Below, in pieces: positions 3,001-6,000 of a stretch of DNA of 11,222 nt (its first letter is position 1; the number at the start of each line of letters is the position of its first letter). A program made the position numbers. Source of the DNA: a virus (taxonomy: Duplodnaviria; Heunggongvirae; Uroviricota; Caudoviricetes); IMG/VR virus record IMGVR_UViG_2703719366_000012, one strand, 5' to 3'.

Positions 3001-6000
3001 CTCTTCCGTTGAAATATATTCCCGACCATCACAGAATTTTTCATATTCAGGATGTGTCCAGTAGCCATATCCGTCACGAACTACCGGCATTTCTTTAATT
3101 TCACTCACTGTTAACCTCCTGCAACGCTACACGATACGCCTTCTTTATCCACGCCTTACTGCCATATAATTTCGTCTTCATAATAAACACACCTGCACGA
3201 CTCGCCGATATCCCCGGACAGGTTAACAGCACAGCATCCACCACACGGTTATGCTTCCGAAACTCCATTACAGTACTGCTGATAACCACCTGCCCCACCG
3301 GGCCGTAATCCTGATACAGGATTTTCACGCAGACACCCTCCTGTCGAAATAAACGTAGTTATTCACTATGCGCAGCGGCATGCCTAATTTTCTGGCAATT
3401 TCCCTTCTTTGCATGCCTCTCTGATGCAGTTGCCGCGCCAGCTCAATATCACGCTGAGAATATTTTGCCGACGGGTGAAAATCACCACGTAACATCATGC
3501 TGATGCCCAGCTCCCGTGCCTTCGTTCTCACTGCCGCTTCAGTTCGTCCGATAAGTGCGCCAACGCTTTTTACCTTCATCGTTCCCGCACACTGCCGGAG
3601 TATCATGATTTCCGCCCGGCACCACGTCTTCCACCCACTCACCGCTGCTGTTCTCTGGTGGCGGTAATATCCCGGAGAATATCCCGGCACTTGTTCAGCT
3701 CCCGCAGCGCGGCGCAGACTCGCTCCCACTTCTGAACCTGACCTTTTGCCCGGCGCAGCTCGCGGTTAGCCACATGCAGCGATGGTAAAATCAGACCATC
3801 CGGATGCTTTCTGGTGAACGACGGCTGTGACTGCACTGTGACCGCCACACTTTCCGTTTTTATTTCTTCCTGTGTTTCCGCTTCCCCGACTGGTAACGCA
3901 ACACCTGCTGGCTGAGGAAAGGCTTTACCATCCGTTTCCGTTATGGATGCGGCTTTCGGCTCTGCCGGTAAATCAGCGCCCGGTATGCAGTACCGAAATT
4001 TACCGCCCTGATTCACGCGAATCAGACGCCCTTTGCTGATTGCCATGGCCAGTGATGAATTCGCCCGGCGGGAGGTAATCCCGAACATCAGTGCCAGCTC
4101 ATCCGCCGTTTGTGGGCCATGATGTTCAATCGCCTCAGTCAGCATTTGCGCTGTCACTTTCGGTACCGGTGACACTGGTTCACTTTCACCAGTCTGAGTC
4201 AGCCACCACATCGACCCCTTGTTATCCGCTTCACCACGGCGCTTCAGTTTCCACAGTTCGTTGACAGCATCTTCGCGGCTGATTCCAAGGCGCGATGCCA
4301 CTACCTGTGAAGAGGCTTTTTTCAGTGCTTTCAGTGCGTCAAATACGGTTTCCATTAATATTTCCTCCGACAAAATCGTTTCTCAGATTCAAATAAAACC
4401 AGCTGCCTTCCGGCGTTCGTATTCCTGTTTCAGCCGTTCAATTGGCGTTGGCCCTTGCGGGTGTTTCGCCCCTTCCAGTTGTCGTCGCACTGGCGGAACA
4501 CTCATCCCGTTACCAACATGCTTTGCCCATTTCGTCAGTTGCCGTTCCGCAAGTCGTTTTAACTCACCTTGCGTCATCTGGCGCTCAATCCCTCTGGTAC
4601 GCATTTCGAGGCAGATGTGGTACAGCACAGGCTGTGGCCACGGGTATTTATCACTCCCGTCGTATCGCCAGGATTCATTGCGCCAGCGCCGGTACTCTTC
4701 CATCACGGCATCCACCGTAAGACCAAATGGATTTGCCCCACTCTCCGAAATCAGCGCAACAAACTCAGCCAGGTCCGGGGGCCACGTTTCACCCGCCCGG
4801 CAGCGGTCCATGCACTGACGGCACACCAGACGGATTTGCTGTTCAGTCATCGCACCAATCTGGGCAATCCAGAGCTTCGAAGGTGCGGCCCCGTTCTTCT
4901 GAGTCCAGCGGTTCGAATACACCTCCCCCATGAGCTCCCACAGCTTCCAGGCCGTTTCCGTTGCTGATAAATCCGTTGTCACGTTCCCACTGTTCGCGTG
5001 CAGCCCGGATTTCCTGAACTGCCCGTGATGCCGTGCCACCTGATGCTGCATGGCTTCCCCCCTTGCTGACTGGTTTTACCTGTGCCCTGACGTGCTGCAC
5101 GTGGCGGGCAAATTTCTGCTCCCACTGAACCTGCGTGAAAACCTTCCCCTCCGCCATCCAGTAATCCCGGAATGCGGCAAGCTCAGCAGGTGTAAATTCC
5201 GGCTCAGGCAGAGCCATACCCCACACTGCTGCCCGTTGTCGAAAATCCGGCGACGGCTGCCAGACAGTAGTCATCGAAAATTTCCCGATCGGTTCGCTCA
5301 GGCCGTCCAGGTATTCAGGTTCGGCTGTCTGCAACGGCGCACCATTCGACTCACTGGTCGGAATACTCTCGCGCGCGTTATGTGTGGGGTTTAATTCTGT
5401 ATCTGTATCTTTATCTGTATCTTTATCTGTCGTGACTTGTCGTGACAGATGCGTGACACGTCGTGACTCATCGTGACAATCAGCATTATGTTTCCGCAGC
5501 TTTTCCCGCTCCCGCTGCGCTCTCTTGCGCTCTGCCGGGGATTTTGCCGTTTGCGAAACGTTACCATTGTCCTCTTTCAGCACCTGACGTTTTTCCCATC
5601 CGGAAATAAGGTCACCATCCAGAACCCGCCCCTGCATTGCATGCAAAATTGAATCAATTACGTCTTCCGTCACATCAAGCGCACTTGCTAAATCTTCCGT
5701 CGTGACATCAATGTGACCACGTAGTGACACGCCGTGACATGTCGTGACATTTCGTGACGCGCTCACCAGAAGATGGATATACACTGCCATCACTGTTGCG
5801 ATTGGCTGTCCTGATACCCTGGCAATCGTTCGCCACTTGGGGTCATTTGGCATGTCATGCCACAATCTGAGCCAGGCATTAGCCATACTCACCTCTTCTG
5901 ATACCGAACTTTACCCTCGAACATCCGGAAGAAATCCGGCATGAATATTGTTGGTCAATGCACGACAACAGCATTACCAGGCTGACCCCCACTGTTAGTC

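Follow-up and report, generated by a model that had tools for sequence, protein, structure and literature searches.

Can two replication genes of a prophage share more than two hundred nucleotides in different reading frames, or does such an arrangement point to a misplaced start codon or to a damaged sequence? The question is raised by the viral record IMGVR_UViG_2703719366_000012 (Caudoviricetes), a stretch of 11,222 nucleotides (nt) that is referred to here as the window. Its minus strand carries a lambdoid prophage replication module of Escherichia coli O157, with two genes of interest: that of an O-like replication initiator (coding sequence 4843-5886, with ATG at 5886 and TGA at 4845-4843, 347 amino acids, the same coding sequence as in RefSeq), and that of a lambda-P-like helicase loader, whose long form extends over 4389-5051 (ATG at 5051, 220 amino acids). 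Both ORF lists and translations assign the segment 4843-5051, 209 nt, to the two genes at once. The sequence-only reading of the window had given exactly these limits, together with the correct positions of two internal ATG codons of P, at 4931 (Met41) and 4850 (Met68); it had considered a genuine overlap, a frameshift artefact and an internal start of P as possible explanations.

The first codon position of P corresponds to the second of O, i.e. P is in the +1 frame relative to O, and the third codon positions of P coincide with the first positions of O. As described below, the overlap is very probably genuine, old and selectively kept, from the E. coli O157 prophage to Vibrio phages; judged from the sequences, its best reading is true dual coding, of the C-terminal tail of O and of the beginning of P, the latter comprising an N-terminal lasso and half of domain II, in the terms used for the lambda P protein.

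Conservation of the overlapping arrangement

Many complete genomes of E. coli O157:H7 carry the overlap stretch with 100% identity, so that a sequencing frameshift can be ruled out, and a 1,651-base query spanning O and P finds matches in 2,910 of 5,426 complete E. coli genomes. The arrangement extends well beyond this species: an O ORF that counts 307-394 codons, lies in frame +2 with respect to P and overlaps it by 182-224 nt is present in 31 of 31 genome loci, from genera including Escherichia, Citrobacter, Enterobacter, Klebsiella, Salmonella, Pluralibacter, Kluyvera, Pectobacterium, Serratia, Rahnella, Rouxiella, Erwinia, Samsonia and Buttiauxella. In these loci the O ORF ends 46-94 nt, and mostly 58 or 61 nt, before the P motif WPPDLAEF; indels found within the overlap among the relatives are multiples of three. 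The same O/P arrangement is carried by all the 23 distinct viral loci examined in IMG/VR, the diverged ones being reached by a scan led with a Vibrio sequence, while the other scan gave near-identical E. coli prophages only; the two scans confirmed 574-582 relatives.

The most distant examples are the Vibrio phages D67, D68 and 1.214.O, where both frames are open and overlap by about 170-210 nt. Their P proteins show 31-35% identity with the P of the window over the N-terminal domain, and 33-43% in local tblastn matches. These matches (loci L048-L050) cover only residues 33-131 of the query, namely the overlap-encoded part and the WPPD region; the C-terminal half of P of the three phages gave no tblastn match to the query. 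Thus the first of the three explanations is favored by the 31 genome, 23 viral and three Vibrio phage loci in which both frames are open. The sharing of a C-terminal tail among O homologues had been expected to speak against the overlap; the homologues do share it, and this supports the overlap instead. No prior description of this O/P overlap was found in the literature, as far as open-access full text is concerned.

Selection on the two reading frames

Statistics on conservation refer to 29 non-redundant loci, 11 of which, those below 60% P identity, are treated as separate lineages. The O frame is open in 29 of the 29 loci. When the P protein is kept fixed and its synonymous codons are resampled, about 3.7% of the trials for a locus (6.4% for that of the window) leave the O frame open from end to end of the overlap; over the half dominated by P the value is 23%. 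The products of these probabilities over the 11 lineages are 1.7e-18 for the whole overlap and 1.7e-8 for the P-dominated half. In the reciprocal resampling, with the O protein given, the P frame is open with a probability of 0.25 per locus.

Avoidance of stop codons is evident also at single sites. Fourfold-degenerate P codons that precede AA, AG or GA, and in which T as the third base would give a stop in O, have T in 0 of 101 cases in the overlap vs 104 of 292 downstream; at the same codons a third-position G, which gives Glu or Gly in O, accounts for 75% in the overlap vs 20% downstream. Similarly, the codon of an invariant Lys of P is AAG in 26 of 29 loci, against a background of 33%, and with AAG the O protein gets Glu rather than Lys. 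On these codon counts, the skewed synonymous codons of P appear to preserve an acidic motif of O, FEPLDxEERG.

Constraint passes from one frame to the other along the overlap, resting on O over the first ~100 nt and on P over the last ~110 nt. In region A (4950-5048) O is constrained and its tail motif SRAVQEIRAAREQWER is encoded at 5028-4981, while residues 2-34 of P form a leader of variable sequence and predicted disorder. In region B (4846-4949) P is dominant, with AWKLWELMGEVYSNRWTQKNGAAPSKLWIAQIGAMT and the helices of domain II, and O is open, encoding a Gly-rich linker and an acidic tail with the motif FEPLDSEERG (4917-4888). In region B purifying selection is clear on P, and in region A on O. 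The O tail, residues 279-347, lies wholly within the overlap; its description as a Gly/Ala-rich, low-complexity sequence holds in places (SKGGSHAASGGTAS, NGNGLEAVGAHGGGV) but misses the helix-like motif SRAVQEIRAAREQWER and the acidic motif. A protein search with a 74-amino-acid O tail retrieved only seven short, near-identical E. coli fragments and was uninformative.

Position of the P start codon

The start codon of P at 5049-5051 spans O codons His279 (CAT) and Ala280 (GCA), and is preceded by the Shine-Dalgarno (SD) sequence AAGGGGGGAA at 5055-5064, placed within O codons Lys-Gly-Gly and including a run of six G at 5057-5062. The predicted duplex of this sequence with the anti-SD has an energy of -11.0 kcal/mol. 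In the O frame the P start is kept as NAT-G in 29 of 29 loci, with His as the O residue in 15 of them, Asn in 12, and Tyr and Asp in one each; these are exactly the residues with NAT codons, indicating that the nucleotides are conserved and not the O residue. Given the O amino acid, the T of NAT would be kept by chance with a probability of about 0.43 per locus. A GGAGG-like site is found ahead of the equivalent ATG in nearly all the loci, and the SD duplex, with a mean of -9.8 kcal/mol, beats the mean obtained by synonymous resampling in 29 of 29. Moreover, the equivalent of ATG 5051 is the only start ahead of the conserved helix of P that is available in every locus. For the 11 lineages the joint chance is about 6e-7, obtained from the open frame (~0.006) and the retained ATG (~9e-5) as a product of per-locus values. 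A good ATG and ribosome-binding site (RBS) had already been noticed in the window, and it is likely that P starts at 5051.

The P-frame sequence itself becomes strongly conserved from about residue 35, with the consensus AWxLWExMGEIYSNRWxxKNGxxPSxLWIAQIG, in two successive alignments, with 28 and 65 homologues that go as low as 46% identity; homologues of 214-223 amino acids are found down to the same identity. Residues R48, W49, K52, N53, G54, P57 and W61 are invariant or nearly so, including in the Vibrio phages. In the family alignment residues 1-34 are variable, with indels, and amino-acid identity is 0.30 in this part vs 0.61 at residues 35-69, the latter being the value of the rest of P. 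The O frame gives a complementary picture: its synonymous divergence is 0.46-0.55, the level outside the overlap, up to residue 303, then drops to 0.09-0.20 from residue 304, which corresponds to about residue 26 of P. The alignment of homologues and the comparison by codon position, both proposed in the sequence-only reading, therefore agree in locating the onset of P constraint at about residues 26-35, with an O tail that is shared down to the position of its stop and a P codon bias in region B.

The long N-terminus is also consistent with the predicted fold. An AlphaFold2 model of the long P, built with the 65-sequence alignment, has a mean predicted local distance difference test score (pLDDT) of 75; residues 1-26 are below 50, and helices 28-45, 47-53 and 59-66 are at about 88. 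With this model, the sole significant Foldseek matches are the lambda P chains of 9oa1, a complex with DnaB (E-value 1.5e-5, probability 1.0), in alignments that span 196-219 columns with a TM-score of only 0.42-0.47. Lambda P consists of a disordered N-terminal lasso (residues 1-29), a compact domain II (30-119), a domain III and a C-terminal lasso (PMC12661323). The predicted layout of the long P matches it, with a disordered leader, a compact helical domain, a second domain and a C-terminal helix. The sequence-only reading was right in considering the long N-terminus as real, but its reason, an alignment with lambda P, does not hold: similarity in sequence starts only at residues 69-70 with phmmer and profiles, or at 58 with Pfam, and so carries no information on residues 1-57; the support comes from family conservation and from the comparison of folds.

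Two orphan P-like genes of Erwinia, without an overlapping gene upstream, have their starts 10 and 26 residues ahead of the AW motif. They are located at 2426-3052 of locus L028 and 2474-3043 of locus L036, no initiator gene is found upstream of them, and their neighbors, identified by eye only, are chromosomal ORFs resembling a TtcA-type tRNA thiolase and a phosphotransferase system transporter. These genes could be what is left of decayed prophages, or loaders that have become domesticated.

Some observations weigh against this interpretation of the locus. Residues 1-25 of P show no detectable selection at the amino-acid level, and, with the O protein given, chance alone would leave the P frame open over that part of the leader in about 72% of the loci; the case for Met1 thus rests on the conservation of the ATG and of the SD, and on the lack of any other universal upstream start. 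On the O side, the conservation of FEPLDxEER/W-G in region B is mostly forced by invariant P residues, with the KNG of P dictating E-E-R/W in O, so that the independent evidence for selection on O consists of stop avoidance and codon bias; the latter becomes weaker when only the 11 diverged lineages are considered (AAG in 9 of 11, p = 0.0014). Finally, predicted RNA structures give no sign that the P start is coupled to O translation by sequestration of the SD or by RNA structure; accessibility is slightly higher in the SD-ATG region than in control windows (0.49 vs 0.43), and sequestration of the P RBS was discarded as a coupling mechanism.

Alternative explanations

Among the other explanations, the one that survives best is that several P products are made, the long form being accompanied by truncated, regulatory isoforms that arise by reinitiation at Met68 after the O stop, or by a start at Met41. 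It is compatible with dual coding and with a start at 5051. The Met68 ATG overlaps the O stop, a classic arrangement for translational coupling; Met is found at position 68 in 22 of 29 loci, the Thr codon ends in T, giving TGA in O, in 17 of 29, and the distance of 58-61 nt between the O stop and WPPD is strikingly fixed in most loci. However, Met68 is replaced by Leu, Phe or Cys in the other 7 loci, the distance from WPPD shifts within the range of 46-94 nt in some, and no SD is present ahead of 4850. Additional isoforms of this kind are thus improbable, albeit less so than the explanations that follow.

A start of P at Met41 (ATG at 4929-4931) would leave the first 40 P-frame codons untranslated and reduce the overlap to 89 nt. 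This codon is ATG in 28 of 29 loci, it is preceded by GGGAG, provided by conserved Trp-Glu codons, and many NCBI homologues of about 180 amino acids are annotated with this start; the lack of amino-acid constraint on residues 1-25 would also fit. Nevertheless, the conserved P-frame residues A35, W36, L38, W39 and E40 lie upstream of Met41, the suppression of synonymous changes in O starts about 15 codons before it, and the tblastn matches to the Vibrio phages begin at residues 33-37. In the AlphaFold2 model Met41 falls inside the first confident helix, 28-45. Furthermore, locus L020 has CTG (Leu) in this position, the SD spacing is only about 3 nt, and the upstream ATG and SD are conserved in all the 29 loci. 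A start at Met41 is accordingly quite unlikely, and even with it the overlap would remain long and real.

A further possibility is that O and P are fused by a programmed +1 ribosomal frameshift or by transcriptional slippage. P is indeed in the +1 frame of O, and in the window its frame has no stop in the 8 codons ahead of the ATG, a stretch that includes the run of six G at 5057-5062; a change of 1 nt in the length of the run would therefore fuse O to P. In the profile phrog_15931, which has 482 positions, O matches positions 1-347 and P matches 279-482; by these matches, the profile seems to derive in part from an ORF in which O and P are fused, or from a mixture of both proteins. However, the G-run is not conserved, most loci having GGAGGT, and no conserved shift-prone site was seen by inspection of the aligned junctions, no dedicated motif scan having been run; P has its own conserved SD and ATG, and in many loci (e.g. 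L002, L010 and L020) a stop interrupts its frame one or two codons ahead of the ATG. Only the odd phrog_15931 profile points to a fusion by frameshifting, which is considered very improbable and was rejected. Two fused proteins are known from single contigs: P0106, in which a deletion joins the N-terminal half of an O of the DUF1376 type to the C-terminal half of P, and P0032, a fusion of DUF1627 to P. Both are probably deletions or assembly artefacts.

If P started at Met68 (ATG at 4850), the two genes would be an ordinary coupled pair, with an overlap of 8 nt at ATGACTGA (4843-4850), which contains both Met68 and the O stop TGA. This is the start chosen for RefSeq by the Prokaryotic Genome Annotation Pipeline (PGAP; WP_000139447.1, 153 amino acids) and in the annotation of Rac-SA53; ATGA-type junctions are the norm for O/P of lambda and phi80, and the sequence similarity to lambda P begins near residue 69, next to Met68. 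Yet conservation over the 33 residues that precede Met68 equals that of the remainder of P, with positions that are nearly invariant down to 46% identity and in the Vibrio phages, and these residues form the three confident helices of the model; moreover, Met68 is the residue missing from 7 of 29 loci, and such a start would remove half of the equivalent of lambda P domain II. A coupled junction of 1-8 nt was thus rejected, in that conserved P coding reaches at least 33 codons upstream of ATGACTGA, and a start that deletes three helices of a conserved domain is hardly credible. Of the two internal starts of the sequence-only reading, 4850 is discarded and 4931 is disfavored, P-frame conservation (AWxLWExM) lying upstream of both.

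The weakest explanation, that the O tail or the long P N-terminus is a frameshift artefact or belongs to a decaying pseudogene of a defective prophage, finds some basis in the run of six G at the P RBS, which varies from G4 to G7 among relatives, in the fused ORF apparently included in phrog_15931 and in occasional deletion fusions such as P0106, but it can be dismissed in view of the identical sequence of many independently finished genomes, of indels in multiples of three, and of the conservation of both frames and of the stop position across genera and in functional phages, i.e. Rac-SA53, the PPompW phages and the Vibrio phages.

Comparison with other replication modules and overlapping genes

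Lambda O/P and phi80 15/14 have the same gene order and roles: an origin-binding initiator, whose gene harbors the iterons, comes first, and a DnaB loader of the lambda P family comes next. Their junction, however, is a 4-nt ATGA, while here 209 nt are shared; the present overlap is thus unusual for an O/P pair, as had been remarked from the window, and the module can be regarded as a distinct variant. A counterpart of the C-terminal tail is absent from lambda O, and the present initiator is DnaT-like and devoid of the PF04492 domain; locus L019, a relative with the same O tail, does have this domain. Resemblance to E. coli DnaT is restricted to the C-terminal domain of the latter (PF17948), and the score with the NCBIfam DnaT equivalog is 94.5 bits vs a cut-off of 201; the N-terminal part of the protein, the iterons and the tail are phage-specific.

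Several long overlaps between genes on the same strand are known in phages, such as A/B/K and D/E in phiX174 and Rz/Rz1 in lambda; these are mostly embedded genes, involved in lysis or morphogenesis. The O/P segment resembles them in having two frames on the same strand, with a conserved segment opposite to a variable or disordered one, but differs from them in that the 3' end of a replication gene overlaps the 5' end of the gene for its functional partner. A survey of prokaryotic genomes dealt with the question of functional constraint or misprediction as the origin of long overlaps, which the literature mainly regards as candidate mispredictions (PMC2478687).

A partial likeness is found in lambda O' (Yates et al. 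1977, as cited in PMC3640518), an extended initiator to which the 5' part of the P gene, read in the O frame, supplies additional C-terminal residues. In both cases the extension of the initiator is encoded within the P gene; the lambda extension, however, needs read-through of a UGA and is a minor product, whereas the present tail is reached without a stop codon and, judging from the ORF, would be constitutive. Homology between the two was rejected: the lambda extension is basic and unrelated, the present tail conserved and acidic.

A proposed role for the overlap

The O tail aligns across all the loci, even when the initiator bodies are unrelated. According to Pfam, the latter contain PF04492 in L019, DUF1376 in L020 and L023 and no domain in L022 and L027, and they are of the DnaT type, with or without HTH_36, elsewhere. 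The boundary of mosaic exchange is therefore located upstream of the overlap, and the tail is inherited together with P. From the older lambda literature, the C-terminus of lambda O is known to contact P. For assembly with the P-DnaB complex the C-terminal part of lambda O is used, in the form of a construct of residues 156-299 (PMC12661323). Since the tail stays with P while the O body is exchanged, and by analogy with lambda, it probably recruits the cognate loader or the loader-DnaB complex; the O tail and the N-terminus of P may be elements of mutual contact.

In the scheme that can be proposed, O would be translated through to the TGA at 4843, and P would initiate independently at its own SD and ATG (5064-5049), 69 codons before the end of O and in the +1 frame, on the same RNA through which the ribosomes translating O would pass. 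The shared 209 nt would encode, on one side, the O tail, made of a helix-like motif, a Gly-rich linker and the acidic FEPLDxEERG, and, on the other, the N-terminus of P, made of a leader of about 26 residues and of the first three helices of the compact N-terminal domain. During mosaic recombination the overlap would lock together the matching parts of the two partners; the location of the P start within O would also link the synthesis of P to the message of O and may restrict how much P is made, lambda P being toxic. The segment could then be seen as a self-matching interaction cassette, in which about 200 nt encode both the loader-recruiting tail of O and the initiator-facing lasso and domain II of P; the O body (DnaT-domain, DUF1376 or lambda-O type) would be swappable, the partner surfaces would never be separated, and the arrangement would be kept from Enterobacterales to Vibrio for this reason. 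This proposal is a tentative one, possible rather than probable.

Other features of the locus

The only Pfam match of the O-like protein is the DnaT-like single-stranded DNA-binding domain PF17948 (residues 203-269, 62.6 bits), PF04492 (Phage_rep_O) not being matched by the protein of the window; in the PDB it matches the DnaT entries 6aep and 4ou6 with E-values of about 1e-20. A GTG is present at 5892, just ahead of its ATG. The P-like protein matches PF06992 (Phage_lambda_P) over residues 58-187, with 57.9 bits vs a cut-off of 26, and phrog_109, 'P-like helicase loader', over residues 18-220 (E-value 1.5e-62); its binding and loading of the host DnaB helicase is putative.

The O gene contains an iteron-like 9-mer, [A/T]GTCACGAC, in eight copies, each of them on the coding strand of this gene; they form two clusters, at 5429-5478 and at 5699-5749. 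In the whole window there are nine such matches vs 2.25 expected, a number never reached in 200 shuffles. The clusters look like the origin iterons found inside the initiator gene of lambda, and by their sequence would mark a candidate origin. They are translated in O as the odd peptides NVTTCHGVSLRGHIDVTT and DCHDESRRVTHLSRQVTT, and an AT-rich stretch of GATAAAGATACA-like repeats is present on the minus strand at about 5390-5428.

As for the neighboring genes, Pfam identifies Cro-like and YdaT-like genes upstream and DUF1627 downstream. The Cro-like (PF14549, 5955-6452) and YdaT-like (PF06254, 6364-6654) ORFs, both on the minus strand, share about 89 nt when taken as maximal ORFs; RefSeq assigns later starts to this pair, leaving an overlap of 17 nt.

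Annotation of the P family and significance

In the databases the beginning of P is placed inconsistently, as indicated by the lengths of the family members, which are about 220, 180, 153 or 140 amino acids. In RefSeq, the PGAP entry WP_000139447.1 occupies 4389-4850 (4101-4562 in locus L047); P of phages Rac-SA53 and pPE4 is annotated from Met68 too, that of the PPompW phages from an even later start, and the annotated starts of the 'hypothetical proteins' of Vibrio phages D67, D68 and 1.214.O are too far downstream. Short entries, which miss 40-80 conserved N-terminal residues, appear from the comparison of sequences to be a widespread annotation error for this family. WP_000139447.1 and many entries of 140-180 amino acids named 'replication protein P' are without the N-terminal lasso and half of the equivalent of domain II, and structural or functional work starting from them would use a truncated loader.

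Long overlaps on the same strand are usually taken as annotation errors in prokaryotes; here one has strong comparative support, in a very common prophage module. The coincidence of P third positions with O first positions implies that each protein can be knocked out or truncated silently for the other. If the O tail is indeed the element that recruits the loader, the module would illustrate how the overlap of two genes can maintain the genetic linkage of interacting surfaces when phage genomes are mosaic.

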